The notes under the pieces were generated by a model that saw nothing but the letters and a program-made list of their open reading frames with translations, had not been told where the DNA came from and searched no databases. From positions 4,278,001-4,342,000 of the forward strand of contig CM022668.1 in assembly GCA_012295275.1 (NCBI GenBank): DNA of 64,000 bases. The letters run 5' to 3'. Origin of the DNA: Chrysomallon squamiferum. Its lineage: Eukaryota; Animalia; Mollusca. The position numbers and the translations under genes are program-made. Of the stretch, positions 6,130 to 56,857 are shown piece by piece. Positions within the stretch are counted from its first letter, which is position 1. The number at the start of each line of letters is the position of its first letter.

Positions 6130-9040
6130 TTACAGTTACAGTTGTACAATCATAACACATTATGTTTTCATAACACGTACACTTATGTTCATTATTGTGA
6201 TTTGCTTTCATGATATGTTTAGTGATATATGAGCAGAAAATGTATCCACTTGAACAATGAAAACAGTGTCAGACCATACATAATTTTCATTACATTGCTT
6301 GCATGAATAATGGTTCAAATGTTTCAAAGTTCTCAGCAATAGTCAGTGTACCTAAAAAATTGATCTTGAATATATGGTTTAAATACAAGTATAAAAATTC
6401 AGATGGGTCTATGACATTGAAATGTTTTTCATATTTTTCTGTTTGATGTCAAATATTTACTTTGATGTCATTTTCTATTTCCTTGTTGTATTTATCAGAT
6501 AGCAAACACTGAATTATCCTGGAACTTGAAAAAATATTGTTACTTTTTAAAGCTTCAAAACCACTGCTTATGCACAATGCATTAATAACAGGTTCAGTAT
6601 ATAATGGCAGATGTTTGTCTACTCTATCATAGAATAACAATAGCATGTATGATTAAAGTTGTCAGTTGAAAAAGACAGAGAATTATCATCACATGAAACA
6701 AACTGATGTTCAATAAGTATGGTATAGCGACCTCCGTGACAGGAATCTCCATGATGACAGACAATACTCTTCAGCTGATATTTAATTTCTGCTTTTTCTG
6801 CATTTTTACGCTGATCATTACATTTTATGAACAAATTGTGAGAAATTTGAACATAATTTGAATTCTTTCTCATACATTTATCAAATAAAATCTCTGAATT
6901 GTGAAAATAAGAGTTGAAGGGAAAGATCTTAGTGTTTGTTTAATAAACATTTACTATGTGAGCACATCCATGCCTTTTCTACTCTCTCTGATTTAATAAA
7001 ATTATCAAGTAACTGTTGCACAGAACTATAACCCATTGCATCAAGATGACGCATTATGAAATGCCCATAATTATTTTCTCTAGATGTTGTTGAGCTACAC
7101 TGTAGCAGATATACTCGTGCTGTAAAATAATATTCCCTTGAGCCCTTTCTGTGAAATATCTGATATCTCCTTGGAGTGTTTATTTTCATCTTTCAAATTT
7201 TTCAGTATTTCTATCACACTTTCTTCTGCTATTTGAACTGGTATTTTTTCATTATTATCAGAACATACAGTTACAGGCTCACATTTATTTTCATGAAGAA
7301 TTAACCATGCTAAATCAGTTGCTGCTAGGGCTTGCATCATTGCAGTAAACCAGCAGGTGTTGCCAAAATTCTTCAAAGGTCTCCAGATGAATCCTAAATC
7401 AGTGATATCTTTGTCAGCATTTTTCATATTTTTCTCATGGCCATAGTGCACACTTTTGTAGCAGTGATCATGCACCAGATTGGATTCGTCCTTTGTTTTA
7501 CTGGTATTGTGTCTTGTTTCTATTTTATTTTTGAGTGGTTACTGAAAATGATCTTTTTTGTTAAAATTATCAATTTGCTCTTTATTGCTAGCCCACAAAT
7601 GTTGTGTTAACATTTTTACCAATTGGTTTCTTTATCTTCCTTAAATATTTTTTGACTTTTCATGCAAACTACAGCTGCCAATGTTTGCAATGAAACAGTC
7701 TGATTATGCAATTTTTCTGAAAAATTATCCAGTCTGTCTTTGGTTCTGCCTTGCAGTCCAGTATATTTCAGAATTCTAAACCTATTTTCAATTGTGCTAG
7801 TTGTTTTCATCTATTCATGAATAAAGTTTTTACTACTGGGAATTTCTGATGCCGATTTTTCAGTCTGTGTTACATTTGTCAAAAATATATTTATTTTAAA
7901 CATTGAAGAAATATTTCTGAAAAACATGGATTAACATTACTATTTTCATCAAATTTACATGGCAATCAGGTTTAGTTAATATTTTCTAAGATACCTTCAG
8001 AAATTGACTTAAACAATCTGTAGTAAACAGGTTGCAATATTTTTATGTCAACTTGTTCAAAATTAAATTCATCAAAATCAGAATATTCTTTTGAAATCAG
8101 TATCACAAAAATACCAAGTAGCAATTCTCTTATTTCTTTCATGTCATTAATATTCATGACCAGACTTAACATATTAAGAAAAATTCTGCAGTTGTTAGCG
8201 TTTTTTTCTTGCATTTTTTCCAGCAAATTTTGTTCACCTTATTCATGAAATGACTAGAGCATATGTGAACATATTTAAAAAAAAATCAGAGTGCTGACTC
8301 ATCATTTTCCATGATCAATGTAAAAATTGATTCAGTGTTTCATTATTAAAATGTAAAAGAGCTCCTAAGATAAAAACCATTGATCAGTGTAGGGCAGGAA
8401 ATATTGTTCTATCCAAATGTTTTCTTTTCAGCATATCTGAAATTACAACTCCAGTCTAACATTGTTGCCAGTGCTTCATTTTCACTAATCATAGTGGCAA
8501 CAGTAATGCCCATCTTATCTTTTTTATAGCATATTCATAGTATAAGAACTGCTTACCATCTTCATTTTTATGAACAATGCTGCCTGTAGCACCCAATATA
8601 AAGCAACTTTTTCTACTAAATTGTGATACAATCTTAATCCCTCTTCTGACCAATATAGTATATAATTAGGTTGCAAAATGATTCTTAAAAATAAAACCTG
8701 TGTAAGATTTTTCTTTCATTAACAACAGAAGACTTTTGGTACACCCTTTGTCTCTTCCAACTTTTTTCCTAGATTCAGAAGCTATTTGACGAAACACACT
8801 TGTGGCTTTTCCGTACCCACTGACATTTCCGGCTACAAGTCTGCTGGCTTAGCATCCGTAACACATTCTAAATAATGCTAAAAGCATTTCTTACAACTAG
8901 CAAATATTTTTTTCAAATCTTCTCTGAGTTTTCCTCTAATAGGCATATGATTCTACTCATGTTTAACATTACCTGAATAAATAACATGCCCAGTGTCCAA
9001 TTTGTACATATTCAAGCTGACATTTACAGAACAGTCTGCA
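6130..9040 (-). mobile_element. Degenerate Mutator/NOF-FB-like DDE transposase followed by a USP (peptidase C19)-like domain
   Basis: Transposase motifs: (D/G)ATGSIV, FLYY, VATMIS, VHICSSHFM (CxxH) and TTSTIENRFRILK. USP Cys box LKNFGNTCWFTAMMQAL and His box YQLKSIVCHHGDSCHGGRY...SCDD. Many stops and frameshifts. Confidence 0.68.
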
Positions 9041-9489
9041 TTTTGTTCGTACGTGATAAATTTAGCAGTAATTATTTTTTCTTTTCTTCTCAATGTCAGT
9101 GAAAACATCATTTCACTGTATCAGTATGTCACTATGTGAATACTTTTGATTAATAAGATGAAAAATGAATATCTTAAATGTATAATATGTGGTAATAGAC
9201 TGTTATTTGTGATGACATTAAAATAAAATGTTCGAAAATAAATTAAACTACAATTAATTAATAATAACTGCAAATAATAATAATGTCCATTTTCATGGCA
9301 CTTGTTCTAATGAAAATCCTTATTATATACATTTTTATTTTTTCAGCCTATGTTAATTTCCATGTGAATTAAAAAAAAAAAAAAAAAAAAAAAAATTCAA
9401 TGAAAACGTAAAATGACTATTAATAAATGGAATTAAACTCTATGAATATCTTGCAAGCTTGTTGTTTATTTATTTATTCATTCTTTCAT

Positions 9490-9954
9490 CACTGCCAACG
9501 CAATGTACACGCCATTCTGTGGAAGGTATGAGATTATGGAAGAATCGAGTGTGTTTATTGTTGACATTAACAGAAACAGAAGGAGTTATCAACCCGCTGA
9601 AGTCACCTAACAAGATTGCATGTACGGATACGTTGTGTGCGTCTCTGACAGCAAACGTAAAGAGGTGTATTTTTTTTCAATATAAATGGCGAATCATTAA
9701 GCGTTTTCTTACCGATGGGGTGCTCTTTGTGTCCCGACGGAATTTGCTTTGACAAGAAGGGAAATCTCGTAATGGCGGATAAGGGAAACAACTCGATGTT
9801 TGTTCTAACCCATAAAAGGGTAGTTTGTGAAGGAAACAGTGATGGAATTGGTTTGAATGGGCTAAAGGCCGTTGCTGAAGACGATCTCGGAAGGCTTTGG
9901 GTTGGTGATTACAGCGGCTATGTCTCTGCTTTCTACAGCCGCACGTTATATTAA
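9490..9954 (+). pseudogene. C-terminal NHL/beta-propeller fragment of a TRIM-NHL-like gene, frameshifted
   Basis: LKSPNKIAC, VCVSDS, CPDGICFDKKGNLVMADKGNNSMFVL and KAVAEDDLGRLWVGD are NHL-repeat-type motifs, split across reading frames. Confidence 0.7.
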
Positions 9955-12184
9955 CAAGAAGGAAACTTGAAAACATTCAAAATGTTAATTATTTTATTAT
10001 ATCGGCACTTTCCAAACCCTTTCATTGAAATTCATTGATTCAGATGCAATCAAATAAAAATACTCTGTATGATGTTGGAGCATCATGCTTTCGAGAGTTG
10101 GAAGCAGAAAAAAACAACAACTCAAAAACAACCTATAAATTAAAAAGAAAAATACGGGCATAATATAATTTGACATGTTTATGGAATAAGGTTGTATATT
10201 GCACGGTGTAATTATCGGTTGTCAGCAGAAACCGAATACGATTGTATTTTATGAAATACGTAAATAAATAAATTCATATGATGCTACTGCTGCTAATAAT
10301 GGTAGATGTAATAATATTTAACTGGATTCTCTCACACTCAAAAGTAGATGTGGCAGTTTCAATATCTTTAAATAAATCGACCATTTATTTACAAACTTTG
10401 CATAAGCAAATTCTTTGTGGATCGCTATAGAAATGGTTTGGAACTTTATATTTTGAAAAATATATAATTTCTAGTCATTTAAATTTCTATGTTGGTAAGT
10501 ACTTAAACATTTGTTACTGAAAGTTTTTGTCGTTAGAGTAATAAGGTTTATCCTTACAGATATGGGAAGGTACTTGTTAAAACTGATCAATAAAAAGCAA
10601 CAGTAATGAATAATTAATTATATTTAAAAATATGTTTTGGGAAAAGTAACTATTAATGAAGTACGTATGTTATTTATGAATAATCAAAAGAGGAAACTTA
10701 AGTTCAAACTCAATGACTGCTGAGATAGTTTAACGTATAAGTTAAAGTTTTAAAAACGTCGGAAATAACGATTTCATTTCGTTTCGTATTTGTTCCATGA
10801 CCGACTCATTAAAATCAAAACAACCTAACACTCTCACAATGTTAATAACGTTAACACGTTGTTTTAAGACAATAACTGGTTGTTTTTAGACAATAATTGA
10901 TTCTTTTAAACTACATTACGCGTTTACCTACCAGTCCACAGCCAGTACAAGCTTAAATATTCTATCCTTCAATGGAATTATATTTATAATTTGATCAGCA
11001 CAGTCCCTTCCACGACTTTCCAAAAAGGGATTTCCCCTTGCTTAAATCCGTGTTCGTTTGTAATGTCAAGATACCTGGCAGCCAAAACCGGTTGCAGATG
11101 ATTGTCTGGGCTAAAACCAGAAATCATAGAGAATGACGCTGTAACTTGAAAATGTACGTTTCAAACTGTGAGAAATAAAAACCGATTTGCAACAATCGAA
11201 CAGCACCGTAGCTTAGCGAAAGAATGCGCAGTTCGTGGCCAGTACTGTTAGCTAAAGGGTTTATTTGTACTGAATACGGATCATTAACGAAAAAAATAAA
11301 TAAAAATGTATGTTTTCTTTTCTTTTTTTTGTGTGGGTATAATGGTTCTCTGTTCTATTAGCGATTCACTTCAGTCGTAGGTTACTGATTAGACAAACCA
11401 GTTAGGAAAAATTCTAAATAAAAGTAAAGGTTTTCCCCGAATTCCTGATTCAGCACTTTGTGTTTTTCCTACAGTTTCCAGGAAAATACAGATTCAATAT
11501 AACATCACTATCACATTGATCACAATTAGGTTTGTATAGTTACGGACTGAAATAATGTCCCAAATGTTACGAAAACGTATTTGTTGTAAAAATATATATA
11601 TAATAAAAAGTATAAACCTACTTTTACTGTATGATATAATGTTAAAATTTCAATATTTGTTATTATTTAAATGAATGCTGCTGCATTTTGCAGGTGTTAA
11701 TACAGAAGATATTATCTGCTGTAGGATCACAATGAACTGTCTTTAGTAATTTTTACCAAAATTTCTTACCTGTGTAATATTAATTTTTAATTTTTTTTAT
11801 TATTATCATTTCCTTTTCATATTCTTCTTTAAAAAAAAATATATTACGTATATTTATTTTTTTATTATTTTTTATCTTTTTGTACTGTTACTGTAATTTG
11901 ATGTTACCTTTAGTAGTTTTTTTTTAATTTTTTATCAGGAAATGTTAAAAGTAAAATACAGAGAGCTTGTACTTGAAAAATATGAAAAGAGAACATTTTG
12001 CTGTTGTTCTTGTTGCAACTTATCAATTTTATTTTCTTATTTAATTTTTCAAATTTTATTTTATTTTTAATTGTATACAATAGTTTGAACAATTTTTGTC
12101 CAAAATATTTATTTTTGTAATCGACATAAATACCTTGATCTTACTACTACTAACACAAACAGCAACAACAACAACAACAGAAGC

Positions 12185-14475: not shown

Positions 14476-14608
14476 TCACCGGAATATTAGCTTCTTCCTC
14501 AGTGAGCTGAACAGAGCTGGTGACTGCTTTAACACACGACCATCCTCCATCTCGACTTTCTCACCTACTTTCTCATTTACTAATGTAAGCAAACTGAGAA
14601 TGTCGTCT
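14476..14608 (-). CDS. Copy A exon 7: p10 C-terminus
   Basis: ttttcag|A GAC GAC ATT..., translating DDILSLLTLVNEKVGE...KQSPALFSSLRKKLIFR*. Homologous to 29175-29307. Confidence 0.85.
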
Positions 14609-15149
14609 CTGAAAATTAAAATGAAAATAAATTTAAAGAAGTAATAAATAGTAATATTTTAGTAACAAACAGAAAAGATAATATATATATATATATGTCC
14701 CACTTGCATTTTGTTTGTATTGGTTTGGTAAAGGATCTGAAAGGAGAATGAAAAGGAACATTCCTTTGGAGGTTCTAACTAAAATACAGTCACAAATGTA
14801 ACAAATGTTTAATATATATAATGAGCATGAATTATACCAAATTTTGTAATCATCAGATGGACAGTTTTTTATTTGGTTCATAGTAACTAATGTGCCCTCC
14901 GTTGAAAATACATCATCCAGCTATTAGCTAAAAAGGTGTCACATGACAAAAGATCAATACAAAGCACTTAGGCAATGTCACAAAGAACAGTACCAAAGTC
15001 ACAGAATATAATAATAATGGTATCCAAATATATTACTCCACTTGGTCTTTTATTTTTATTTTAAATATGGAAAATATGTACACATAAACAGTGCTAAAAG
15101 GTGTTTGAAACGCAGGCCAGAAAAGCATTTAAAGTTTCGCACTTATTAC

Positions 15150-16543
15150 CACAACAACTCTCTGAAAGATCATTACCCAGCAACATATCTACATCCTCCA
15201 TCGGTAAACTGTCTATGAGACCGACATACACATCTCCAGGAACTAGAGGTGAATTGAGAAGAAGTTGGTGTAATGGAATAGTAGTACACCTTCCTGCAGC
15301 TGCCTTAATGATTATATTTTTATCTGTTGCCGATTTTTCTGGATCTTTTATGGCATCTTTTAGAATCAGGCTCTGTCAAGGTCCTGTGTCTCGAAAAATG
15401 GAAATTACCCTAGGAGAATAACTATTTGATTGAATATCACAAATAGTACCCTGTGACATATATTTAACATATTTCTTATGAGTATACATCTCTGGTAATT
15501 CTGAGACATTACTTACTGTTCTAACAAAACCTACAGTTTTCTGATTATCCTTTTGTCTGGCATAACAGTTTGAATCAACATGATTATTCATTATGCAATA
15601 CGAACAACGTGGTTGAAAAGGTTTAGTTTCAGCTGACAGATTACTCTTCACTGACATCCCTGACCTAGTATTATAGTATGCTGCATAACTGATGTAGGCC
15701 TAACAGAAAACCTTACCTGATTACCATCAACATTCCTCGCAAAACTTAACACAACTTTGCGACTTGTGGATGAGAACGTAGTTATCAACAGCTACAGCAG
15801 CAGTTTGTTGACTTTCTCCGATCTGCCTGGTCTGCCAAATGTAACCGAACATTTACCGGTAAACAATTTTTCACTTCATCCAAACTGATTAATTCAAGTA
15901 ATTTGCCATAATCATTCCCAATGTCGCTTGATCTAGTCCATTTATCAAAAACATTCTGTTTTCTAGACACAAACTCACAGTGCGTTTCTGAATCTAACTT
16001 CGGAAAAGGCTGATGATATGCCTCGCTGGTAAAAATAATAGGCTGTCAGCACTGCTGATTTTAACACCTCATAATTTCCGACCTGAGCATATCTAATGCA
16101 TTATAGGTTAGAGCAGTCTTTCCTTTCAATTTACTTTGAATTAACAAATGCCAAAACAATTCTGGCCATTTTAATTCAAAGGCCACTCTTTCGAACTGCT
16201 GAAACAAACTTTTAACATCATTCTCATCAAAATTAGGAACTGACCTGTAACGATCATTGATTCTAAAACCATTCGATGCATTCTCGCTTGAATTATCTCT
16301 AAACTCTCCTCTCATTTAAAGTTCATGTTCCATTTTCAATTTAATTATCTAGGTCATTACTACCCCCACTCTCGTTATCTACAGAATTTCCAAACAAAGT
16401 CTCTGTTAAGATTTCTCTGATTTGCTCTATTTTTTTGACTGAGCAATTGAAATATTATGAATATTTGCTAGCTCCAATAGCTCAGCTGTCTTGGCTCTTT
16501 TGATAAAAGTTACACTAGGATTGTTCAATGTATCTTGATCCAT
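15150..16543 (-). mobile_element. Ty3/Gypsy gag-protease remnant in the last intron of caspase copy A
   Basis: VPNFDENDVKSLFQQFERVAFELKWP...LLIQSKLKGKTA (SCAN-like gag), CSYC...H...C zinc knuckle, IFRDTG aspartic-protease motif and LLGNDL. Absent from the equivalent intron of copy B. Confidence 0.8.
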
Positions 16544-16899
16544 AATTATTTCTCAGTTTTGATTTATTTATTTTAATATCAATATTATTTTGCTGTGTTG
16601 TGTTTTCTCAAGTGGATATAAACATAAATTAGCTGTCATTAAACTGAGAAAATACACAATACATCTAAAGAAATAATTCCATAAGAATTTTTGAAAAAAA
16701 GCACCCAAATTAAATATTAATTTTACAACAACGCCATGGAGCTGAATTTTGGCGGAAACAATAAAAAAGCGCGATTGTGATTGTAGTTACAATTAAAGGA
16801 ACGCAATTTCAATTCCATGGCATAAAAATATAAAGTGCGGATGTGATTGAAGTAACAAATTGTCACGCAATCTGAATTCCGTTACAAATATTTCATCAT

Positions 16900-17160
16900 T
16901 ATCATCATTGTCCAGCTGCTCTGGCCTGCTTTCTGGACACACTTCCATCTTCTAAAATCATATCTATTTCTCTCATGCGGATAACTGGTTTTTGGGTCGT
17001 GATGTGATGTTTAACATAATTATTTTCATTTACATTTGCCTGGCTGTTAGTTTGTTCTTTGTCTGTCTTGTTTGTTGTCCATGTTTCTGCATTACATGTC
17101 ATTTCTGCACGAATACATTAGTTTTAATCTTCAAGCTGATTCTTAAGTTTCCCCTTAAGT
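16900..17160 (-). mobile_element. Short LINE (RTE-like) ORF2 3' fragment
   Basis: CNAETWTTNK resembles the YGxETWT motif found downstream of RT in RTE-type LINEs. Very degraded. Confidence 0.4.
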
Positions 17161-17191
17161 TTTCATACAATCCTAAAATTCATTTACTTAC

Positions 17192-17501
17192 TTTTTAGCA
17201 TATTTTTTTAAAATTTCTGTCATATTTGTGATGTACCAGGATCCTTTTGATCTTGATCTGTAAGTCACAAAACCTGGTACTGTGGCATATCCTATTAGAA
17301 AATCTGATTCATTGGGAATTAGTTCTGCCTGCGATATACGTTCTGCCTGCGATATAGGTTCTGCCTGCGATATAGGTTCTGCCTGCGATATAGGTTCTGC
17401 CTGCGATATACGTTCTGCCGGCGATATACGTTCTGCCTGCGAGATTGTTTCTGAAGGCGAAGCATCCATGTTAATATTACCGTCTATTTGTCGTTCATGT
17501 C
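17192..17501 (-). CDS. Copy A exon 6: intersubunit linker with 7x ISQAE[R/P/L] repeat and start of p10
   Basis: Bounded by tttacag| and AA|gtaagt. IPNESDFLIGYATVPGFVTYRSRSKGSWYI. Confidence 0.88.
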
Positions 17502-17891
17502 CTGTAAACAAAATATATCAAAAATCAAGTTCTGATATTTTAAAAACATTAATCTTCAAACAGCATGCGAATGCATACCCAAACCCATACAGATAGATAT
17601 CTATAATTATACATGATGTATTTTAGAGCAAATAAACACTAAAAACTTTTATCATTTGTGGACAATGTCAGTATAATTTTGTGTCAAACTCGTAGCAAAT
17701 TGTTCATCCCAAAAATCGTTCTCATGTATTAAACAATGAGATTGGAATTTACATAGAAATAGGCAATATAATACAATATATACGTGGCTATACAGAATAG
17801 GTATTAATGTATGTAGATTTGGGGAAAAAAATGTAACACCTTCAGTGAATAATAATAATAATAATAATAATAATGTGCCTATCATACATAC

Positions 17892-18191
17892 CTGGTTGTT
17901 TTTTGTTTCCCTGACAAGCCTGTATAAAAAACAACTTTGGTTTCCCACTCAGTGTTGGACACGACTCAGGTCTAAATGGTTCAGTCAATTTTCTGATCTT
18001 TACAGGGAAACCGTTACATCCGTATACCACACCTTCAGCTCCGTGTGATAAAATACAAACCACAACACAGTCATAGTCACTGTGATCACGGGACGCCATC
18101 CAGTTTACAGCATGAATCATACGATAGTCTGACATATTTTCTTTGTATTCGATGCGGAAGTCAAGATCCTGAAAAGTATCTCTCAGTTTTA
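17892..18191 (-). CDS. Copy A exon 5: catalytic p20 exon (SHG...QACQG)
   Basis: Same 300-nt length as the paralogous exon 27699-27998. Catalytic His and Cys are intact, but the in-frame acceptor reads GG rather than AG. Confidence 0.88.
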
Positions 18192-18437
18192 CCTTGAAAT
18201 AAAAGTGGTTTTCATGCTTTTAAACTAGGTAAGTAATATTGATGTTTATGTATGTGTTTGTTCAGTTCGAACCAAAAAAATGTTTTTAATAGATGATGTT
18301 TGAGCATGTGACATTATTTATGACATTTTACACATATTCTGAAACGTGAAAATAATGGAAAATTATTAATTATGTAAGTGAATAAATCTGACTATATATA
18401 TCTAATTAGTGTATGAATTTCATTTATAAAACACTAT

Positions 18438-18530
<93 letters not shown>

Positions 18531-18717
18531 TATATGTAAATAAACCTTCATTACTATTATTATTGCTTTTATTACTATCTTGTTATTATTTGTTCTTAGA
18601 ATTATTTTTAGTATCATTATTACTGTTATTGTTATTGTTACTGATGCTGTTATTTTAATTATTATTATAGTTTGTGTTGTTGTTGTGGTTGCTATTCTCT
18701 TTCAAAGTAAAATTTAC

Positions 18718-18816
18718 CGATATCTTCATCAGTTCCTGGCCTGTCTAGCAATGCTTCATCATCTTTCTTCATTTGATCTTTGTGAAAATTTCTATTGTTG
18801 ATTATTAAACATATTC
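18718..18816 (-). CDS. Copy A exon 4: p20 N-terminal part (GICLIINNRNF...DRPGTDED)
   Basis: 99-nt exon bounded by tgtag| and |gtaaat, with the CLIINNxxF and RxGT caspase motifs. Confidence 0.88.
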
Positions 18817-19227
18817 CTACAATAACACAGAAAAAAAAACCCAGTTTTAACGGAAATATGAAGCATAAATTTAAGAGACAGAGAGAGAGAAACAGACAGA
18901 CAGAATGAGCGGGAGATACAGTGATATGAATGTGGTGAGTCCAGATTGTGTCTGTGTTTATGAATCACTCATCAAGATACAGTAGCTGGAGTAAGAGCAG
19001 GGAATCATGACTTGTACACTGGGGAATTCAAATCTCTAGCAGTGCAGATTTGCGTAAACATCACCAAACAAATCTCAAGGACATAAAAAAAAATGTATTA
19101 GTGTATTTGTGTATTTGTGTATGACAGATATCGCTCACATACATTGTTTGTCCCATTCTAATACTATTATTAAAAAGGCCTCTTTTTCCTAGTCACAAAT
19201 CAGTAAAATATTTATTTCAAAATATAC

Positions 19228-19284
19228 CTCGAACATTAGAATCCATTTTGTAGAAGCGAAGAGGACTACGGCCAATGCGATTCT
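19228..19284 (-). CDS. Copy A exon 3: start of caspase domain (ENRIGRSPLRFYKMDSNVRG)
   Basis: 57-nt phase 1-1 exon bounded by ctgcag| and |gtatat. YxMxxxxRG is the usual start of the caspase p20 subunit. Confidence 0.75.
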
Positions 19285-19828
19285 CTGCAGATTTTTCAAG
19301 AACAAATAAGTGAAAAAATTAAACATAATAATACGTAACAAAACTGAAGATAAGTTCTGCTATAAAATTAAAATAAATGCAGCTTAATCCGATTTCTTCA
19401 TTGGTTTTGCGATGTCAGTTATTTGCTTATAATAAAGTATAATGATAAAATAACAAAGAGTAGAACTATGAAGATAAAATAAAATGATGCCCGTTATAAT
19501 GATAATGATGATGATACCACGTCTGAAGTCACATTTTTTCTTCAACCCATATGAGAAAGTACTAGAAATAAACATTTTCATAAAAATAAACATAGATGAT
19601 CAAATTCAAGACATAAATAAAAATCACACATGCACACACACAATGTAACTAGAGACATTAAATCATAAAAGCGTTAGTCACTGGTGAATGAAATTTTGTG
19701 ATAAAATCTTGAGGGATAATAGTAATGACACTGAAATAACTTAAAACTTTACACTCTCTGAACTCTAGAATATTTGCCAACTGTTTTGTGTTTTCAGAGA
19801 GCTGATTTACTTCAAACCAAAACATTAC

Positions 19829-20086
19829 CTTCCAAAATGTTTTCCAGTGCTGCTGCTATTTGTGTCATTTCACAGTTCCTCATGACCTTGGACAAATCTC
19901 TTATTATCTTTTTACTATCATGAGTGTTGTTTATCATTTGGAGCCTTAGTTTGATCACGTTAGTGTTTCTGTCGTGAGGTGAATGATAATACTCACTCAA
20001 ATCTTGTGTTAAGTCAGGAGTATTCAAAATGGTTGGAAGGGAAAAGAACTCCTTGTCTGATATATGCAGAAAGATATCATGTATAG
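19829..20086 (-). CDS. Copy A exon 2: putative death domain (symmetric phase 1-1 exon, 258 nt)
   Basis: Acceptor tgcag| and donor G|gtaatg, open frame. IHDIFLHISDKEFFSLPTILNTPDL...IKLRLQM...IIRDLSKVMRNCEMTQIAAALE has a death-domain-like helical pattern. Confidence 0.65.
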
Positions 20087-20513
20087 CTGCATTAAACAAT
20101 ACAATGAAATACAAAACAAAAGTGAAATACATTTTGAATATATATTTATAAATTATTGATTTTATTAGTTTATTGATGATAAAAGTTTGCTAATAATATA
20201 CTATTTGAATAAAAGTAATTAGAATGATAATTATAAATGCTGACATTTTCCTTTTTTTGTGGTATTATTTTGTTTATTCAGAAATGTTTAAAAAATCTCG
20301 TCGGAACAATTAACAAATAATAGAAAGTTGAAATCTTTGATAAAATTAGTTAAAATACGTAAATTACAGAAACATGATGTAATCTGATCATTTATAAGAA
20401 TATTTCTACATTAATTTATTTTCAAACTAAAGTTAGAACACATATTAAGTTATCACTTTTATTATTCTTGGGTCATTTAAGAAGGTTTCCGGGTGTTTTG
20501 GTTTCTTATTTAC

Positions 20514-21420
20514 CTGGTTCTGAAGCAAGACTTTGTGTTGGCTGAGGAGTCTTTGGTACAACCCTCTCTGTTGTCCTACCAGGCTTTGTTGGCTCACTGG
20601 GATATTCTACTTCAAAATTTTGATTTGGCATGTGTTCTTGTTGTTCACATTGATGAGCTTGTTCTGAAGAAGGAATTTGTGCTGGTTGAGGATTCTTTGG
20701 TACAACCATGTTCGTTGTCCTACCAGGCTGTCTGGAATATTCTCCTTGCACCCCTTGTATTGGAAGGTTTATTTGTTGTTCAAGTTTATTTCCACTCTTC
20801 ATCAATGCTGACTGATCTGCTGTAGACATTGTACTAAGACCCATCCACTGCTTGTAGTTCATTGTTTTTTCCACCAAATCAGATCTTCCTATCTGCTTAA
20901 AAGAACCTTCCAAAATATCAATATTTTCAGGACTAATTTTTTTCATCTGATCAAGAAGGAAAACAAAATCTAGTACATTGTGAATCTTTTGTTGCTTTGC
21001 TCCAGGAATGTCTGCAGAACAAAACAACCTATCCAAGTCCTCTTTACCGATTTCATCAGAAAGATCAAGAAGCAGATTTCTGTATGGTGAAAAATGTGAT
21101 CCATACATGAACAGAAGTTTATCCAGTTCTTTCTCGTCAACCTATAATTTTTTCACAAGATCTAACCTCATAATACGTTTTAACATCTCGGCCAAAACCC
21201 ACTTATTTGTTTCTTTCAGTTTGCCTGTTTCCTCAAGAAAGCTGAATAGTTCAGTTCCATTCTTTATATGTTCCAGTCGATTGAATGGAACAAAGTCACG
21301 ACACAAGAATTTCAGAGAATCAATGTCCTTGCTGTTCAGGTTTCTGTTAACTTCAAGCAATACAGATCTGTAATGACTAAACTCCTCACTGATTTAATCT
21401 GTTAGTAAATCATCAGTCAT
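20514..21420 (-). CDS. Copy A exon 1: tandem death effector domains plus a Pro/Gln-rich linker (two in-frame stops)
   Basis: YRSVLLEVNRNLNSKDIDSLKFLCRDF...KRIMRLDL (DED1) and SPYRNLLLDLSDEIGKEDL...IGRSDLV (DED2). Donor CAG|gtaaat after 20514. Confidence 0.88.
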
Positions 21421-27238: not shown

Positions 27239-27438
27239 NNNNNNNNNNNNNNNNNNNNNNNNNNNNNNNNNNNNNNNNNNNNNNNNNNNNNNNNNNNNNN
27301 NNNNNNNNNNNNNNNNNNNNNNNNNNNNNNNNNNNNNNNNNNNNNNNNNNNNNNNNNNNNNNNNNNNNNNNNNNNNNNNNNNNNNNNNNNNNNNNNNNNN
27401 NNNNNNNNNNNNNNNNNNNNNNNNNNNNNNNNNNNNNN
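27239..27438. other. Assembly gap (200 N)
   Basis: Run of N. Confidence 1.
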
Positions 27439-27698: not shown

Positions 27699-27998
27699 AT
27701 AAGCTGAAAGAAACTTTTAAGAATCTTCATTTCATCGTCCACTACAAAGAAAATTTGACTGACACTGACATGGTTGAAACTGTAAAGGGCCTGGCTTTCT
27801 TTGATCACAGTGACTATGACTGTTTTGTGTGTTGTATTTTATCACACGGAGACAAAGGTGTGGTATACGGAGGTAACAATTTGCCTGTAAAGATCAGAGA
27901 ATTGACTGAACCATTTAGACCTGAGTCGTGTCCAAAACTGAGTGGGAAACCAAAGTTGTTTTTTATACAGGCTTGTCAGGGAAAGAAAAAACAACCAA
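27699..27998 (+). CDS. CASP8: Caspase-8-like copy B, catalytic exon (5' exons missing or hidden by the gap at 27239-27438)
   Basis: Acceptor tttgtag|. DCFVCCILSHGDKG...GKPKLFFIQACQG. Donor A|gtatgt. Confidence 0.9.
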
Positions 27999-28014
27999 GT
28001 ATGTATGATAGGCA

Positions 28015-28054
<40 letters not shown>

Positions 28055-28341
28055 TCAAGAGAAGGACTTTCTGCGGGGAAGAATAATTTGTTTCAAGTTT
28101 GACAAAAATTTATACTGACATTGCCCGCAAATGATAAAATTTTCAGATTTTCTATGAATTTTACATAAAATGAAAGAGGCATTACCCAGAAATGATAAAT
28201 TTTTAATGGTTTTTTATTTCCTCTAAGGTACATCATATATAATTATAAATATCTGTATGGGTTTGGATATGAGTTCGTATGCAACTAGGATTAATGTTTT
28301 CAAAATATCAGAACTTGATTTCTGAAATATTTTATTTACAG

Positions 28342-28522
28342 TTGTTGTAGACCAACACACTAATAGTGGCATAGGTAGTCCGGAGGCAGAAACAATCCCG
28401 AGTGAAGCAGATTTTCTGATAGGATACGCCACCGTACCCGATTTTGTGACTTTCAGATCAGAATCAGAGGGAACATACTACATCATCAAACTTACACAAA
28501 TGTTAGATGACTATGCAAAGAA
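28342..28522 (+). CDS. CASP8: Caspase-8-like copy B, linker/p10 exon
   Basis: tttacag| then IVVDQHTNSGIGSPEAETIPSEADFLIGYATVPDFVTFRSESEGTYYI...YAK, donor AA|gtaagt. An in-frame alternative acceptor precedes 28351. Confidence 0.85.
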
Positions 28523-28684
28523 GTAAGTCAATGAATTTGAGGGTTGTGTAACCCTTTAAGGGAAACCTTAGCAATCAGCGTGAACATTACATCTAACTTA
28601 CTCTGGCAGTAACACACACACACACACACACATATCTACATATATATATGTATATTCAACAATTTTAAATATGTAAACAGTGTA

Positions 28685-28735
<51 letters not shown>

Positions 28736-29174
28736 AAATCTGTGGGGTGAGATATTTTGGTACCATTATTTGCTGTGACTTTGGTACTGTTGTCTGTGAA
28801 CTTGCCTAGGGGCTTTGTATTGATCTTTTGTGATGTCACGCCTTGTTAACTAATATTGTTAGCTGGATGATGTATCTTCTAGGGAGGACAAATTGATTAC
28901 TACATTTTGTAGAATTCATACATATTACATATATTATGCGTATGTTAGAAGCATTTGTTAATATGTTAATGTATTTTAGTTAGAACCTGCCAAGGAATGT
29001 TTCTACATTATGTTGTTAACTAAAATGTACAAGAAATCATTATCATTCTCTTTTGAGATCTTTTAACAAACTAATACAAACACAATGCATCTGGGAATAT
29101 ATACAAATGCTTGTTATTAGAAAATTACTATTTATTACTTTTTCAAATGTATTTTCATTTGATTTATGTTTCAG

Positions 29175-29307
29175 ACAGGACGTCCTCAGTTTGCTGACGT
29201 TAGTAAATTATGAAGTAGGTAAAAAAGAGTTCAATTTCAAAGGTCGTCTGTTCAAGCAATCACCATCACATTTCAGCACATTAAGAAAGAAGGTGTTATT
29301 CAAGTGA
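29175..29307 (+). CDS. CASP8: Caspase-8-like copy B, last exon
   Basis: tttcag| then QDVLSLLTLVNYEVGKKEFNFKGRLFKQSPSHFSTLRKKVLFK, ending at TGA. Confidence 0.88.
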
Positions 29308-30422: not shown

Positions 30423-30800
30423 TTAATGTAACATGCAGTTGTACAAAACAGAGGCGCAGCCGCTGATATCACCAAATCAAAGCCGTCCCAGGTCGTCAAC
30501 GGCCTTTGCTCCATTCAAACGAATTCCATCACGAACTATTTCCTTAACATGGATTAGAACAATCACCGAGTTGTTTCCCTTGTCCGTCATTACGAGATTT
30601 CCATTCTTGTCGAAGCAAATTCCTTCGGGACAAGAAGAGAACCCCATCGGCAGGAAAACGCTTAAAGATTCACCACTGAAAAAATACACAAAGTATTCAG
30701 TTTGAAACTAGATACTCACACAACGTTTGCGTACTGCCATGACAGAATGCATTCTTGTTTGGTGACTTCAGCGGTTAGACATATTTTCTTGTGAGTGTCA
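30423..30800 (-). pseudogene. NHL fragment, more diverged paralog
   Basis: CPEGICFDKNGNLVMTDKGNNSVIVL...GAKAVDDLGRL*, with indels and a stop. Confidence 0.68.
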
Positions 30801-36004: not shown

Positions 36005-36420
36005 TATGTTAGTAGTAGTAGATATAGTATAGTAGTAGTATTAGTAGTAGTATATATAGTATAGTAGTATTATTAGTAGTAGTAGATATAGTATAGTAGT
36101 AGTATTAGTAGTAGTAGATATAGTATAGTAGTATTATTATTAGTAGTAGATATAGTATAGTAGTAGTATTAGTAGTACTAGTATTGGTAGTAGTAGCAGT
36201 AATAGTACTTACAGTAGCAGAAGTAATTATAGAAGTAGAAACAGTAGCAATATAAGTTATTATCTAATGTTAAAAGTCTAGAGTAGGAGCAGTATTAGTA
36301 TTAGTAGTGGTAGTGGCAGTAGTAGCAGTATGTAGTTGTAGTGGTAGTAACAATAGCAATAACAGTGGTAGTATTAGTCGTCATCGTCGTTTTGATAGAT
36401 ATTAGTAGGGGTAGTGGTAC
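36005..36420. repeat. (TAG)n-derived minisatellite/low-complexity tract (inverse copy at ~1045-1345)
   Basis: Repeated tagtagtagatatagtatagtagtagtat units. Confidence 0.85.
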
Positions 36421-36525
36421 CAGCAGCTGTACAAGTATTGCGTTGTATTATTATTATTATTATTTAATGAGCGGTTGATATTGATTAATTTATAGATTAT
36501 ATCATTATATATATATGTATCAGTA

Positions 36526-36565
<40 letters not shown>

Positions 36566-36903
36566 GCTAAAATCTTTGTTTCATTTGATTTCATTTGATT
36601 TATTTATTTTAGCTGTTCCAGGCATGTATAGTTAATTGAATTTAAACTTCGGATTAAATGTAATTTCAGGACATTTAGATTGGAGTTATTTCCCGTTCGC
36701 TTTATTCTCAGTAGTTAAAAAGATTGGCTTTAGATACTTACAAATAAACAAACAAACAAATAAATAAATAAATAGTGAATTATATATATAAAAATAATAA
36801 ATATTAAAAAATATATAAATAAAATAACAGGGCTTCGGAGGGAGTTTGTGTTACGCAAGATCTACTTTCTTTCGTAGCTCTTGTTTGAAGAATCGGAAAA
36901 GTT

Positions 36904-36958
<55 letters not shown>

Positions 36959-39900
36959 TAATAACAAGAAGAAGAAGAAGAAGCAAAAAAAATATATAAA
37001 ATAATTAAATTTAAAAAAGTAAAGAAAAGGAACAGTGGCTCTGAAGTAAGTTGTTGATTTTATTATTTATTTATTTATTATAGTTTATCTCTCTCTCTCT
37101 CTCCCAATACATAAATTACCAAGTATAATTATTAGTAGTAATGTATGCATATCAGGTACAACAAAAATGTTGTTGTTTTCGTAACCTTTGTTGAACGTTT
37201 TTTTGTTTTTTTTGTTAATGATCTGTATTCAAGCTGACAGTACAATCACGAGTTATGCGTCGTCAATTACATTCGTTACGCTACGGTGCTGTTGGATTGT
37301 TCAAACCGATTTGACCTCCGACTTAAGAAAGGGGAAAACCCTTGTGGGACTCCCGCCTTGAGAAAGGGGAATACCCTTGTGCGACTTCCAGTGTCATGCA
37401 ATGGACTGTCTTGATGAAAATTATAAATATAATTGATTTAAAGACAGAATATTTATGCTTGCCACTACTGTGGACTGGCAGGTAATCGCTTGGTATAGTC
37501 TAATACAATCAGTTATTGTAAGAGCTTTAGGTTGTTTTGATTTTAATGAGTTAGTCACTGAACAGAAGTATCGTAAAACGAAACGAAATCGTTTAATATT
37601 TCAACTTAAAAGTTTAATTGTTTTAGAAGTCAGTAAGATACAACAATAGTTTTCACTTTTGATTATTCATAAATAACATACATACTTGACTTATAGTAGC
37701 AGATACTTTTCAAACAAATATTTTAAAATAAAATTAATAACAATACTGTTTTCATAGGTATGTTTTAAGAAGTAACTTCCATATCAGTAAACAATATTTG
37801 ATTATTTGTTGTAAAAGAAACAACAAATAGACGAGTATTTGAGAAACAAAATTTAATTTAGTCAGCAAACTACCAAGGTTTGGTATATCGTTGGATATAA
37901 ATTGTACTGAAAATTAATGATTGCTGTCTGTTTAGTTCTTATGATGACATTGTCACATTACCCCAGTCACTCACTGGGAAACAAAACTATACTGAATGCT
38001 AACACTGATGTTTGCTTACAAAGTTCCAGATGTGAAAACATATAATACACATTTTATTCATCAGCTCAGTTATTTAATTTTTTTTAAAATACCTGTAGCG
38101 ACACAGTGTTTCGTTGTCTGATCAATGTAATAATCAGTTGTTCTCAGGTGTGACTTAATTTAAACTCTGTGTACAGTTTTTTTTTGTTTTTTTTTTTCAA
38201 GAAAAGAACAGTATACCCTGTATCTAATAAATGAGAAACAAAAATATGAAGGTGCGTTAATTGTAAGAATTAATTCTTTCTTATGATGATATTGTCAGAT
38301 ATTTTCCACAGTCACTGTCTGGGAAACAAAAATATACTAAATGCTAAAGCTGTGAAAAGATATAATATAGATTTGTTATTTTCTATAGTTGTTAATTCTG
38401 AATATATCTGTTGTTTTCTAAGCATTTAAAACATACTAAAGACAGTTCATTGTGATCCTACAGCAGATAATATCTTCTGTATTAACACCTGCAAAATGCA
38501 GCAACTTTCATTTAAATAATAACAAATATTGAAATTTTAACATTATATCATACAGTAAAAGTAGGTTTATACTTTTTATTATATATATATTTTTACAATG
38601 AAATAAGTTTTCGTAACATTTGGGACATTATTTCAGTCCGTAACTCTACAAACCTAATTGTGGTCAATGTGATAGTGATGTTATATTGAATCTGTATTTC
38701 CCTGGAAACTGTAGGAAAATCACAAAGTGCTGAATCAGGAATTCGAGGAAAACCTTTACTTTTATTTAGAATTTTTCCTAACTGGTTTGTCTAATCAGTA
38801 ACCTACGACTGATGTGAGTCGCTAATAGAACAGACAACAATTATACCCACACAAAAAAAAAAAAAAAAAAAAACCATACATTTTTTATTTTCGTTAATGA
38901 TCCGTATTCAGTACAAATAAATTAGCTAACAGTACCATCACCAGTTACTCGCCACGAACTGCGCAATCTTTCGCTAAGCTACGGTGCTGTTCGATTGTTG
39001 CAAACCGGTTTTTACTTCTCACAGTTTGAAACGTACATTTTCAAGTGACAGCGTCATTCTTTATGTTTTCTGGTTTTAGCCCAGACAATCATCTGCAACC
39101 GGTTTTAGTTGCCTGACATCTTGACATTATACACGAACACGGCCTTAAGCAAAGGAAAATCCCTTTTTGGAAAGTCGTGGAAGGGACTGTGCTGATCAAA
39201 TTATAAATATAAATCGATTGACGGATAGAATATTTAAGCTTGTACTGGCTGTGGACTGGTACGTAAACGCGTAATGTAGTTTAAAAGAATCAATTATTGT
39301 CTAAAAACAACCAGTTATTGTCTTAAAACAACGTGTTAATGTTATTAACATTGTGACAGTGTTAGGTTGTTTTGATTTTAATGAGTCGGTCATGGAACAA
39401 ATACGAAACGAAATGAAATCGTTATTTCCGACGTTTTTAAAACTTTAACTTATACGTTAAACTATCTCAGCAGTCATTGAGTTTGAACTTAAGTTTTCTC
39501 TTTTGATTATTCATAAATAACATACGTACTTCATTAATAGTTACTTTTCCCAAAACATATTTTTAAATATAATTAATTATTCATTACTGTTGCTTTTTAT
39601 TGATCAGTTTTAACAAGTACCTTCCCATATCTGTAAGGATAAACCTTATTACTCTAACGACAAAAACTTTCAGTAACAAATGTTTAAGTACTTAGCAACA
39701 TAGAAATTTAAATGACTAGAAATTATATATTTTTCAAAATATAAAGTTCCAAACCATTTCTATAGCGATCCACAAAGAATTTGCTTATGCAAAGTTTGTA
39801 AATAAATGGTCGATTTATTTAAAGATATTGAAACTGCCACATCTACTTTTGAGTGTGAGAGAATCCAGTTAAATATTATTACATCTACTATTATTAGCAG

Positions 39901-40236
39901 CAGTAGCATCATATGAATTTATTTATTTACGTATTTCATAAAATACAATCGTATTCGGTTTCTGCTGACAACCGATAATTACACCGTACAATACACAACC
40001 TTATTCCATAAACATGTCAAATTATATTATGCCCGTATTTTTCTTTTTAATTTATAGGTTGTTTTTGAGTTGTTGTTTTTTTCTGCTTCCAACTCTCGAA
40101 AGCATGATGCTCCAACATCGTACAGAGTATTTTTATTTGATTGCATCTGAATCAATGAAGTTTCAATGAAAGGGTTTGGAAAGTGCCGATATAATAAAAT
40201 AATTAACATTTTGAATGTTTTCAAGTTTCCTTCTTG

Positions 40237-40705
40237 TTAATATAACGTGCGGCTGTAGAAAGCAGAGACATAGCCGCTGTAATCACCAACCCAAAGCCTT
40301 CCGAGATCGTCTTCAGCAACGGCCTTTAGCCCATTCAAACCAATTCCATCACTGTTTCATTCACAAACTACCCTTTTATGGGTTAGAACAAACATCGAGT
40401 TGTTTCCCTTATCCGCCATTACGAGATTTCCCTTCTTGTCAAAGCAAATTCCGTCGGGACACAAAGAGCACCCCATCGGTAAGAAAACGCTTAATGATAC
40501 GCCATTTATATTGAAAAAAAAAATACACCTCTTTACGTTTGCTGTCAGAGACGCACACAACGTATCCGTACATGCAATCTTGTTAGGTGACTTCAGCGGG
40601 TTGATAACTCCTTCTGTTTCTGTTAATGTCAACAATAAACACACTCGATTCTTCCATAATCTCATATCTTCCACAGAATGGCGTGTACATTGCGTTGGCA
40701 GTGAT
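40237..40705 (-). pseudogene. NHL fragment, near-identical inverted copy of 9490-9954
   Basis: Same sequence on the opposite strand, inside the inverted duplication. Confidence 0.7.
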
Positions 40706-41149
40706 GAAAGAATTAATAAATAAATAAACAACAAGCTTGCAAGATATTCATAGAGTTTAATTCCATTTATTAATAGTCATCTTACGTTTTCATTGAATTT
40801 TTTTAATTTATTTTTTTAATTTACATGGAAATTAACATAGACTGAAAAAAAAAATGTATATAATAAGGATTTTCATTAGAACAAGTGCCATGAAAATGGA
40901 CATTATTATTATTTGCTGTTATTGTTAATTAATTGTAGTTTAATTTATTTTCGAACATTTTATTTTAATGTCATCACAAATAACAGTCTATTACCACATA
41001 TTATACATTTAAGATATTTATTTTTCATCTTAGTAATCTAAAGTATTCACATAGTGACATACTGATACAGTGAAATGATGTTTTCACTGACATTGAGAAG
41101 AAAAGAAAAAATAATTACTGCTAAATTTATCACGTACGAACAAAATGCA

Positions 41150-42532
41150 GACTGTTCTGTAAATGTCCACTTGAAAATGTACCAACTGAACACTGGGCAT
41201 GTTATTTATTCAGGTAATGTTAAACATGAGTAGAATCATATGCCTATTAGAGGAAAACTCAGAGAAGATTTGAAAAAAATATTTGCTAGTCGTAAGAAAC
41301 GCTTTTAGCATTATTTAGAATGAGTTACGGATGCTAAGCCAGCAGACTTGTAGCCGGAAATGTCAGTTGGTACGGAAAAGACACAAGTGTGTTTCGTCAA
41401 ACTGCTTCTCAATCTAGGAAAAAAGTTGGAAGAGACAAAGGGTGTACCAAAAGTCTTCTGTTGTTAATGAAAGAAAAATCTTACACAGGTTTAATTTTTA
41501 AGAATCAGTTTGCAACCTAATTATATACTATATTGGTCAGAAGAGGGATTAAGACTGTATCACAATTTAGTAGAAAAAGTTGCTTTATATTGGGTGCTAT
41601 AGGCAGCATTGTTCATAAAAATGAAGATGGTAAGCAGTTCTTATACTATGAATATGCTATAAAAAAAGATAAGATGGGCATTACTGTTGCCACTATGATT
41701 AGTGAAAATGAAGCATTGCCAAGAATGTTAGATTGGAGTTGTAATTTCAGATATGCTGAAAAGAAAACATTTGGATAGAACAATATTTCCTGCCCTACAC
41801 TGATCACTGGTTTTTATCTTAGGAGGTCTTTTACATTTTAATAATGAAACACTGAATCAATTTTTACATTGATCATGTAAAATTATGAGTCAGCACTCTG
41901 AATTATTTTAAATATGTTCACATATGCTCTAGTCATTTCATGAATAAGGTGAACAAATTTTGCTGGGAAAAATGTAAGAAAAAAACCCAACAACTGCAGA
42001 ATTTTTCTTAATATCTTAAGTCTGGTGATAAATATTAATGACATGAAAGAAATAAGAGAACTGCTACTTGATATTTTTGTGGTTTTGTTCTCCAGTCATA
42101 TAAACTCCTAGACAGACTATTTCATAAAAGCAACTGTTTTGAAATATCGATTTCAAAAGAATATTCTGATTTTGATGAATTTAATTTTGAACAAGTAGAC
42201 ATAAAAATATTGCAACTTGTTTACTACAGAATTTCTTAATTTAGCTGAAGACTCTTTGTTTAAGTCAATTTCTGCAGGTATCTTAGAAAATATTAACTAA
42301 ACCTGATTGCCATGTAAATTTGATGAAAATAGTAATGTTAATCCATGTTTTTCAGAAATATTTCTTCAATGTTTAAAACAAATGTATTTTGGACAAATGT
42401 AACACAGACTGAAAAATCTGCATCAGAAATTCCCAGTAGTAAAAACTTTATTCATGAATAGATGTAAACAACTAGCACAATTGAAAATAGGTTTAGAATT
42501 CTGAAATATACTGGACTGCAAGGCAGAACCAA
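41150..42532 (+). mobile_element. Second, inverted and 3'-truncated copy of the Mutator/NOF-like transposase remnant
   Basis: Reverse-complement match to ~7720-9040. It ends just after the IENRFRILK motif, before the USP part. Confidence 0.65.
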
Positions 42533-45320: not shown

Positions 45321-46292
45321 TAGTATGGATCAATGATTTTGTTAAAATAAAAATAGGAAACTCATTGTTTGTGTACATAGTAGTACATGTTTTAGAAGTT
45401 GAATGCTTTTTGTTTTAACGAAAAATAGTGACTTTCTAATTTTTAATAAAATAATTTATAAGGCCGGTTGACGGACCTTTAATAAAAAAAAAAAAAAAAA
45501 AAAAAATGTTGTAAAACTGACTCAAGCGTTATAATGAGTCATCTTCATATTCACGCGCCATCGTCTGTAAAAAAAAAAAAATTTTTTCTTTTATTATTAT
45601 TATTATTTTTTTTTTTTGGCTGGCGACGTCGTAATAATATCTGAAAAATATATAGTACGAAACGCGTACGAGATAGTATGACGTTAGCAAAAGAGAAAGA
45701 AAGGTTTCGACCTTTGTAGCAACTTCTACTCAGTAATAGACATCTATGTATACAAAGCATTGATTAAATGACATATTTCCCCATTATACTTTTAATAATA
45801 CATATTGAATTGATTACATTAAGAAGGCATACGTATTTAAACATTTGTAAATACTAATTGGCGTTCGACGCTACCATATTGGATTTCGATCGGAAGTTTC
45901 CGTGAGCTCACGAATATTTTTAAACTTCAAAATTAAATTATTTTGCATCCATTTTTCAGAACTTTTTAAGATTTATATTGATAAAGGTAAGGACGGTTGT
46001 TCATATTATCAAACCATGATGTCACGCGCCTTTTCTAACTACTTTTTCAACTTAATCAAACTTTTGAAACTGGATTATGTTTGTGTAAATGCGAGCATAA
46101 TAAACTGAAATTATAATACGGAATACGATTAATGTATTAACTTTTGTAGTTGTCAAAAATGTTCCCCCTCTCAGAACCCAGTAGAAAAGAACATTTAGGG
46201 ATTGTTTGTACCCATTAAATCGAAATTTCTCGAGGCTTTTTTCCATGACGTAATTTGTGCCGTTATGTTACCGTTCCTGTTGGTCCATGCTA
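45321..46292. mobile_element. Non-autonomous DNA-transposon-like insertion in the upstream block of copy C
   Basis: Ends tag(t/c)atgga / tccatgcta, flanked by cttaaga on both sides. The homologous blocks at ~39440 and ~63090 are empty. Second copy at 53792-54958. Confidence 0.55.
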
Positions 46293-46904
46293 CTTAAGAA
46301 TTAAACTATTTCAGCAGGCAGTAAGATACAACTAGTTTTCACTTTTGATTATTCATACTTAAAATACGTACTTCATTAATAAATACTTTTCCCAACAAAT
46401 ATTTTAAGATAAAATTAATTACTCAATACTATTGCTTTTCATAGATCGGTTTCAACAAGTAACTTACCACATCTCCAAAGAATATTTGATTATTCATGGT
46501 AATAACAACCACAAAATTGACCAGTACTTTATAAGCAAAATTGAGTTTAGTGATTAACCTAGGTTTGGTATATACTGCATATAAAGTATGATGAAAATTA
46601 ATGACTACTGTATGTTTAGTTCATATACTAATATTGTAAGATATTTTCCCCAGTCACTCACTGGGAAACACAAATCTACTAAATGATAACACTGATGTTT
46701 CTTTACAGATGGGAAAACATATAATATACATTTTACTGATCACATCAATTTTTTTATTTTAAAGAAATACCTGTATGCCTTGAGTGTGTCAGAGAAAGGA
46801 AATATAATCAGTTGTTCACAGGCGTGAATTAATTTAAACGCTGTCTGTATACTGTTTTCCAGACAAGAACTGTAGAACTGAGACTAATAAATAAGAACAA
46901 AATA

Positions 46905-48123
46905 ATGAACTTTAAACTGACATTCAATGTCAACAAAATATGCATAGAATCTATAAATAAACCTGAAAAAGTACAACTTCTAAAATATGTGACGAAAGAA
47001 CAATGTTGCAGACAGCCACCCATTCAGGAAAAGGAGACTCATGTTCAGACAGCAGCCAAAAATGACCAAAGAATCATAAAACATAATTTAATTTATGTTT
47101 TAACTTTATGTTGAAAACCAAAATAATATAGAAATATTCCTGTAATTACCTCAATGTTTCTGTAATTTATCCTTTGAATCAAAGATTTCCGTATTTTAAC
47201 TTTTATTAGTTCTATGAATGATTTCAACTTTCCTATTATTTATTTGTTCCTTCAACAATTTCATCATTACTAATAAACAAAATAATACCACAACAAAAAG
47301 GAAAATGACAACATCTAATACTCAGTCTAATTATTTTTTATCCAAATACTATATTATTAGCAGACATTTATCATCAGTAAAGTAATAAAAACGAATAATT
47401 TATAAATATGCATACAAAATGTATTTACACTTTCTGTTTGCATTTCAAAATGTTCATTTTAAATCGAAATGCTTAATTTTACTTTCTTTTATTAATAAGT
47501 TTGTATCTATTTTAATTTTTTTCTTCTATGTACTATGGGTAATCTGTAGATGTGCATTTTTATAATGATTCCCTGGTTTCATTTCTAAATTAAACAATTA
47601 ATACTGTTATATCATTATATTATATTTATTATTATTATAATATTTGTTTATTTGTTACATTTTCTTAATTATTCATTATTATTTCATTCATTTTTCATAT
47701 CTGATACACTAATCCATGATATTGCTCTGCATATATCAACCAAGCAGTTCTTTGCCCTTGGAACCCTGTTGAATATTCCTGACTTAACACTACAAAATAT
47801 GAGTCAGCATTCCTAGTCATCTCTTGAGAGAAATATTAACATGATAAAGCTATGGCTCCAAATGAGAAATAGCACTCATGATAAAAAAAAAGAAGATAAT
47901 AACAGATTTGTCCAAGGCCACGAGAAACTGCGAAATGCCACAAAATAATGTTTTAATTTGAAGTAAATCAGCTCTCTGAAAACACAAAACAGTTGGCAAA
48001 TATTCTAGAGTTCAGAGAGTGTAAAGTTTAAGCTATTTCAGTGTCATTACCATTACCCCTAAGATTTTATCACAAACTTTCATTCACCAGTGACTAAATT
48101 TCTTTATGATTTTAGTTACATTT

Positions 48124-48177
<54 letters not shown>

Positions 48178-48937: not shown

Positions 48938-48964
48938 GTATGTCTGATAGGCACATTATTATTA

Positions 48965-49007
<43 letters not shown>

Positions 49008-51345: not shown

Positions 51346-51579
51346 AGTGAAGCTTTTCAAAAAATATTTTCTATGAATAGTTTTTCTATGATAATATTTA
51401 TATATTGTTATCAACACCATAACAATCTTACTGTCATCTTTATCATTTATTATGACAGTTTGTAGTCATTCAGTATATTTAATTACTTGGAAATTCCAGT
51501 TTTATTTAAATCATTTACTGTAAGGCTGTATTCTGAAGATTTAAATGTGCAATTAAGTATTTACAGATGTGTCATCATG

Positions 51580-56841: not shown

Positions 56842-56857
56842 GTATGTATGATAGGGA

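Follow-up and report, generated by a model that had tools for sequence, protein, structure and literature searches.

A broken caspase-8-like gene copy with a probable death-domain exon in an array of decaying duplicates of Chrysomallon squamiferum

The stretch of the Chrysomallon squamiferum genome analysed here (GCA_012295275.1, contig CM022668.1, positions 4,278,001 to 4,342,000; 64,000 nucleotides (nt), hereafter the window) carries five coding copies, A to E, of a caspase-8-like gene, and this work concerns copy A, which lies on the minus strand at 14476-21420. Our analysis indicates with good probability that copy A arose as a duplicate of a caspase-8 gene and is now broken. One additional exon of the gene likely encodes a death domain (DD), so that copy A is likely a pseudogene with the layout of bivalve caspase-8B, namely two death effector domains (DEDs), a DD and a caspase domain. 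The locus is likely a new, decayed member of this known design in a fast-turnover array. Because copies A and C both carry lesions, the description as a DED-DED-DD-caspase gene fits the ancestral or a paralogous gene and not an intact product of the copy A locus.

Exon structure and lesions of copy A

Copy A was modelled as seven minus-strand exons with AG/GT ends, and all 12 splice sites are intact. Exon 1 (20514-21420; 907 nt) begins with ATG and encodes DED1 (about 21372-21145), DED2 (about 21084-20848) and a Pro/Gln-rich linker that contains a 134-nt internal duplication. Both DEDs match the Pfam family above its cut-off (E 1.7e-21 and 2.3e-16) and, with regard to the FADD/caspase-8 fusion to which the first-pass annotation had likened the gene, look like an ordinary caspase-8 pair. 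Exon 2 (19829-20086; 258 nt, phase 1-1, AG/GT ends) is open for 85 codons and lies between the tandem-DED exon and the caspase exons, where the first-pass annotation had placed it; its coordinates were correct, and the two Pfam DED matches and the Peptidase_C14 matches flank it. The caspase domain starts in exon 3 (19228-19284; 57 nt) and continues through exon 4 (18718-18816; 99 nt), which has the RxGT motif and a 14-residue loop, and exon 5 (17892-18192; 301 nt), which encodes p20 with the SHG and QACQG motifs and matches Peptidase_C14. Exon 6 (17192-17501), also a Peptidase_C14 match, encodes an intersubunit linker, in which there are two Asp sites and a 6-residue repeat present seven times, and then the start of p10, whose end and stop codon are in exon 7 (14476-14608). 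The features expected of caspase-8/10 were found in that copy A has tandem N-terminal DEDs, interrupted by stops, and copies A and B both have a peptidase C14 domain in which the catalytic His (SHG) and Cys (QACQG) motifs are intact, as are the linker Asp sites.

A single open reading frame from the DEDs to p10 is not present in copy A. There are in-frame stops at codon 9 (TAA, 21396-21394), where copy E has GCA for Ala, and at codon 93 (TAG, 21144-21142), where copy E has CAG for Gln. Relative to its counterparts in copies B, C and D, exon 5 has one extra base and hence a +1 frameshift, so with canonical splicing the frame terminates 10 codons into this exon. None of the three lesions has a counterpart in the paralogs compared, E for the stops and B, C and D for the frameshift. 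As assembled, copy A is likely a pseudogene, and it would itself yield no active protease. The six AG dinucleotides near the exon 5 acceptor were also considered as alternative acceptors; one (18179) gives an open frame, but it is not preceded by a pyrimidine tract and both upstream stops stay.

An undamaged copy A in the living animal or population, with the lesions explained by misassembly or by a null allele, seems to us highly unlikely. It is true that the catalytic motifs and all splice sites are preserved, and that none of the listed RNA runs contains copy A (0.01-0.02 of words). Against this stand three lesions that are independent of one another, two being base substitutions, together with the lost conserved DD residues described below, a retroelement-like insertion and a p20 dN/dS that is not below 1.

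The insertion occupies about 2 kb of intron 6 (15042-17101, minus strand) and is absent from copy B. It contains broken gag/SCAN-like frames, with a weak SCAN match under the Pfam cut-off, and from its sequence it is likely a decayed retroelement. The diverged RNA-library contigs described below also map onto it. The intersubunit linker of copy A is lengthened by its repeats, seven in tandem of 18 nt each (17320-17455, minus strand), and copy B has none.

Identity of exon 2

Exon 2 is likely a decayed death domain, judging from its sequence, size and position. It is open in its own frame, a result reached in 41 of 20000 shuffles, and the other two frames contain 12 and 8 stops. The best match in the ESM Atlas was a Death cluster, at 0.91 with 186 of 256 features shared, in which 21% of the members carry Death. 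The ten best family-bearing matches all fell within one clan, and when the Death clusters were removed the best named matches were DED, at no more than 0.81. Both searches count as one source of evidence. The domain proposed by the first-pass annotation was thus favoured by the ESM Atlas and by a position between DEDs and caspase, but Pfam, phmmer and the AlphaFold models gave no confirmation.

The copy C paralog (about 47704-47945, plus strand) had been used to illustrate the domain, and its peptide is present as quoted. The ellipses in that quotation, however, conceal a TAG stop (47814) and a +4 frameshift in a run of A (about 47885); in addition, the acceptor AG has become TG and the last 30 nt or so of the exon are deleted. 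The Gly/Leu and Leu-Trp-Leu positions, which we take to be typical and conserved in DDs, are preserved in the exon of copy C. Copy A has Pro for this Gly and Arg for this Trp, and is one codon shorter.

Several results weigh against the assignment or fail to support it. Between 4 and 10 of 100 shuffled proteins also reach 0.9 in the ESM Atlas. Exon 2 has no Pfam Death match and no match among PDB sequences, none of 83 candidates from a search of 5.8 billion proteins was a relative, phmmer returned no match in 1.84 billion representatives, and nothing passed the threshold among 128 fetched proteins. Two AlphaFold models (pLDDT 71.6 and 62.3) were alpha/beta and not the six-helix bundle, the second with helices at residues 10-19, 23-29, 55-70 and 74-84. 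Foldseek found no match to the models at E<=0.001, and the 50 VIA-align rows listed were headed by small alpha/beta domains (best Z 5.8) and included two pyrin domains (5.0 and 4.4). Purifying selection on the exon is not demonstrable either: dN/dS between copies A and C is 0.60 (95% confidence interval 0.25-1.59), and its A-C identity of 81% is lower than that of the flanking introns (86% and 92%).

Those blank sequence, profile and structure searches and the alpha/beta models would suit an unrelated linker exon with no death domain at all. We nevertheless find that account very improbable, since the ESM Atlas matches are all of the death fold with DD well over DED, since the size (85-89 residues) and position of exon 2 agree with the published DD of caspase-8B, and since one model was built from a single sequence and the other from three, all from decayed copies. 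A decayed death domain is therefore the likely identity of exon 2.

Transcripts of related copies

RNA contigs were obtained from three RNA-library runs of one study, mostly with 80-95% identity to the exons of copy A. At this likeness they would come from paralogs or a relative and not from copy A, which limits what they say about copy A itself. In contigs of two of the three runs a joint between exon 1 and exon 2 (20656/20070) was present, across 29 letters and in frame. Its acceptor lies 6 nt upstream of that of copy A, at the position of the copy C acceptor, and it leaves a shorter linker. In the run X2, joints 20661/19913 and 19881/18088 had a depth of 10. A 1378-nt record that maps to DED2 from base 1171 of the record onward has this depth too, which suggests that DED2, exon 2 (a piece of 33 nt) and p20 are likely on one contig. 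Further RNA joints connect exons 4-5, 5-6 and 6-7. Exon 2 is included in spliced transcripts of related copies. The expectation that the exon is spliced in was therefore borne out by joint 20656/20070 in related RNA, although neither 20514/20086 nor 19829/19284, the junctions expected by the first-pass annotation, was observed in that form. No skipping of exon 2 was found among the 15 joints listed (of 19).

Relation to caspase-8B

Three types of bivalve caspase-8 are recognised by Vogeler et al. 2021 (PMC7836458). One of them has two DEDs and a DD and is represented by Cg8B of Crassostrea gigas (AKP95634) and Mc8B of Mytilus californianus (ADB80146); it is ascribed there to domain gain and loss by single exons. 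The same paper, citing Sakamaki et al. 2014, reports binding of the Mc8B DD to those of human Fas and human FADD. The first-pass annotation had made the novelty of its architecture depend on its not being widely described already, and this publication, which covers both the architecture and the binding to Fas/FADD, therefore removes that claim. Cg8B and Mc8B resemble the present locus in QACQG, in the 14-residue loop before RxGT and, provided that exon 2 is the death domain, in the order DED-DED-DD-p20-p10 and in the DD on its own exon. By eye, the loop from F to RxGT has 14 residues in copy A, Cg8B, Mc8B and Tt8 of Tubifex, as against 5-6 in the 8A group (Mc8A, Cg8A). The locus differs from Cg8B and Mc8B in that the family is locally multiplied, most copies are decayed and copy A is broken.

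Membership of the locus in caspase-8B is likely, given these sequence features. One point counts against it: in the oyster gene each domain has its own exon (PMC7836458), whereas here both DEDs share exon 1. The kinship with Cg8B and Mc8B was judged by eye against supplement rows. The tree that was built comprised copies A and B and 24 proteins hand-picked from 123, with fragments of fewer than 150 aligned residues dropped and without Cg8B and Mc8B. In it A and B form a pair (99/91) that adjoins two Logan caspases (82/91), apart from Mytilus caspase-8A. These neighbours (P0002 and P0003, single-member clusters) carry C-terminal fusions, to the start of an AIG1 GTPase (PF04548) and to a ubiquitin domain (PF00240).

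Other known proteins share parts of the design. In the abalone Haliotis discus discus, Hdd8 has the DED1 nearest to that of copy E by eye (31/74, compared with 27/74 for Mc8B and 26/74 for Cg8A) and shared caspase motifs, a comparison that covers its DED and CASc alignment rows in the PMC7836458 supplements; no statement of a DD in Hdd8 was found there. The nearness of DED1 suggests a molluscan, perhaps gastropod, gene. The amphioxus bbtCaspase-1/2 (PMC3196919) likewise has DED and DD in tandem before the caspase domain and interacts with bbtFADD2, but it has a single DED and a caspase-2-like catalytic domain. Vertebrate caspase-8/10, which works with FADD, shares the tandem DEDs and caspase and, unlike the design discussed here, has no DD. 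Homologs of the p20 exon were mostly vertebrate caspase-8/10 among the best 120 of 157, and none of these 120 carried PF00531. A DED profile search gave three distant vertebrate matches among 6959 candidates. In metagenome scans, DED1 was found in none of 242 stretches and p20 in three of 300, of which two are distant animal caspase loci, in neither of which exon 2 found a match, and the third, bacterial in appearance, is a chance match.

In the literature, lophotrochozoan caspase prodomains are reported to have been swapped repeatedly (PMC11463336), and the available part of that paper does not mention a DED-DED-DD-caspase design among its many swaps. The corresponding parts of PMC9389742, PMC10923776, PMC11874512, PMC12066828 and PMC10967218 likewise contain nothing on this design. 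We found no report of it in gastropods, which is a weak negative because subscription papers lay outside the search.

Origin of the death domain and proposed mechanism

The gain of the DD by exon shuffling within this family, as the first-pass annotation had it, was not shown, and it is no less likely that the DD was inherited from a common caspase-8B ancestor. An independent gain in this lineage, converging on bivalve 8B and with copy A still a pseudogene, would agree with the symmetric phase 1-1 exon, which is ready for shuffling, with the two DEDs in one exon here and in separate exons in the oyster, with a copy E DED1 closer to Hdd8 than to Mc8B or Cg8A, and with the repeated prodomain swaps of lophotrochozoans. 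We consider such a gain unlikely because the locus has the 8B-like domain order together with the same 14-residue loop in the catalytic domain, and one origin is simpler.

From the known pathway of the death-inducing signalling complex and from Mc8B, the following steps may be proposed. The zymogen produced by intact paralogs would attach through its DD to that of death receptors or of FADD, and its tandem DEDs would nucleate DED chains. The protease domains brought together in this way would dimerise and cleave themselves at the linker Asp sites, and the activated protease would start apoptosis or NF-kB signalling with less need of FADD. Direct docking on DD receptors is plausible. Adaptor independence, i.e. 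death without FADD, is reported for no 8B in the available parts of the literature consulted.

The DD-bearing design of caspase-8B is known from two bivalves, and these results suggest that another lineage, likely a gastropod-like mollusc, has it as well, in multiplied and expressed form. Such DDs can escape Pfam, and so the DED-DED-DD-caspase design may be under-counted. The significance is modest: the locus is a decayed copy that opens no new mechanism, and the mechanism proposed has already been described for this design in the sources cited.

The array of copies

No complete open gene was found among the five coding copies within the window: three (A, C and D) are broken, C and D being more decayed than A, and the other two (B and E) are partial. 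The array of working DD-caspases pictured in the first-pass annotation, or a working gene at this locus, is therefore not what the window contains. Copy B (27699-29307, plus strand) comprises exons 5-7, which are open and preserve the catalytic motifs; the 5' half of the gene is absent next to an assembly gap (27239-27438). Copy C (46864-49316, plus strand) has a DED-less remnant of exon 1, the broken DD exon and a broken p20 exon with a 13-nt deletion and a stop, and its p10 exons are absent. Copy D (55500-57135, plus strand) also has a DED-less exon 1 remnant, which terminates in a phase-1 donor; its DD exon is deleted, its p20 is frameshifted at the end and there are no p10 exons. Copy E (63659-64000, plus strand) is the DED exon, open for its first 114 codons and continuing past the window edge. 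Copies C and D show a common in-frame loss of both DEDs, which leaves an open exon 1 remnant of about 50 codons (46905-47060 and 55557-55712, plus strand). They may descend from a DD-caspase that lacked DEDs. A scallop caspase-8/10 (DD-CASc; PMC8878197) similarly lacks DEDs and has its DD immediately in front of a caspase-8-type domain; copies C and D differ from it in being broken, and the likeness is one of domain order.

The copies are surrounded by segmental duplications, one inverted (8104-11755 and 38427-42081, 96%) and one direct (45537-53173 and 54212-60619, 88-94%), which are consistent with the birth and death of copies. Segmental and inverted duplication would thus have produced the array. 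The upstream region of the caspase gene occurs a sixth time at 36137-38250, in a copy that stops where the DED exon would start. A second gap, of 200 N like that beside copy B, is at 53174-53373, and some of the duplicated copies could be uncollapsed haplotypes.

Pairwise dN/dS of the p20 exons of copies A, B and D (17893-18189, 27701-27997 and 56543-56821) was 1.14-1.55, with every interval spanning 1, and that of p10 between A and B was 0.45 (0.23-0.85). Relaxed selection, positive selection or gene conversion could account for the contrast. When spliced, copy A is open for 346 codons from Met105 (21108) to about 18165 (minus strand), which covers DED2, the linker, exon 2 and a truncated caspase start. 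It is conceivable, though quite improbable in our estimate, that lesions in a fast-turnover caspase-8B array create new domain combinations: a DD-caspase ancestor of C and D, and from copy A, by restart at Met105, a 346-residue protease-less DED-linker-DD protein acting as a FADD-like or cFLIP-short-like decoy. With a p20 dN/dS above 1, the array would then be an immune arms-race locus, and if true this would extend DD-bearing caspase-8 beyond bivalves.

The window is AT-rich (25-40% GC per 2-kb bin) and rich in microsatellites. Fragments of NHL-repeat exons occur three times among the caspase copies, at 9661-9951 (Pfam NHL) and, by similarity, at 30427-30705 and 40357-40776. A fragmented ubiquitin C-terminal hydrolase (UCH) domain lies at 6622-7538 on the minus strand.

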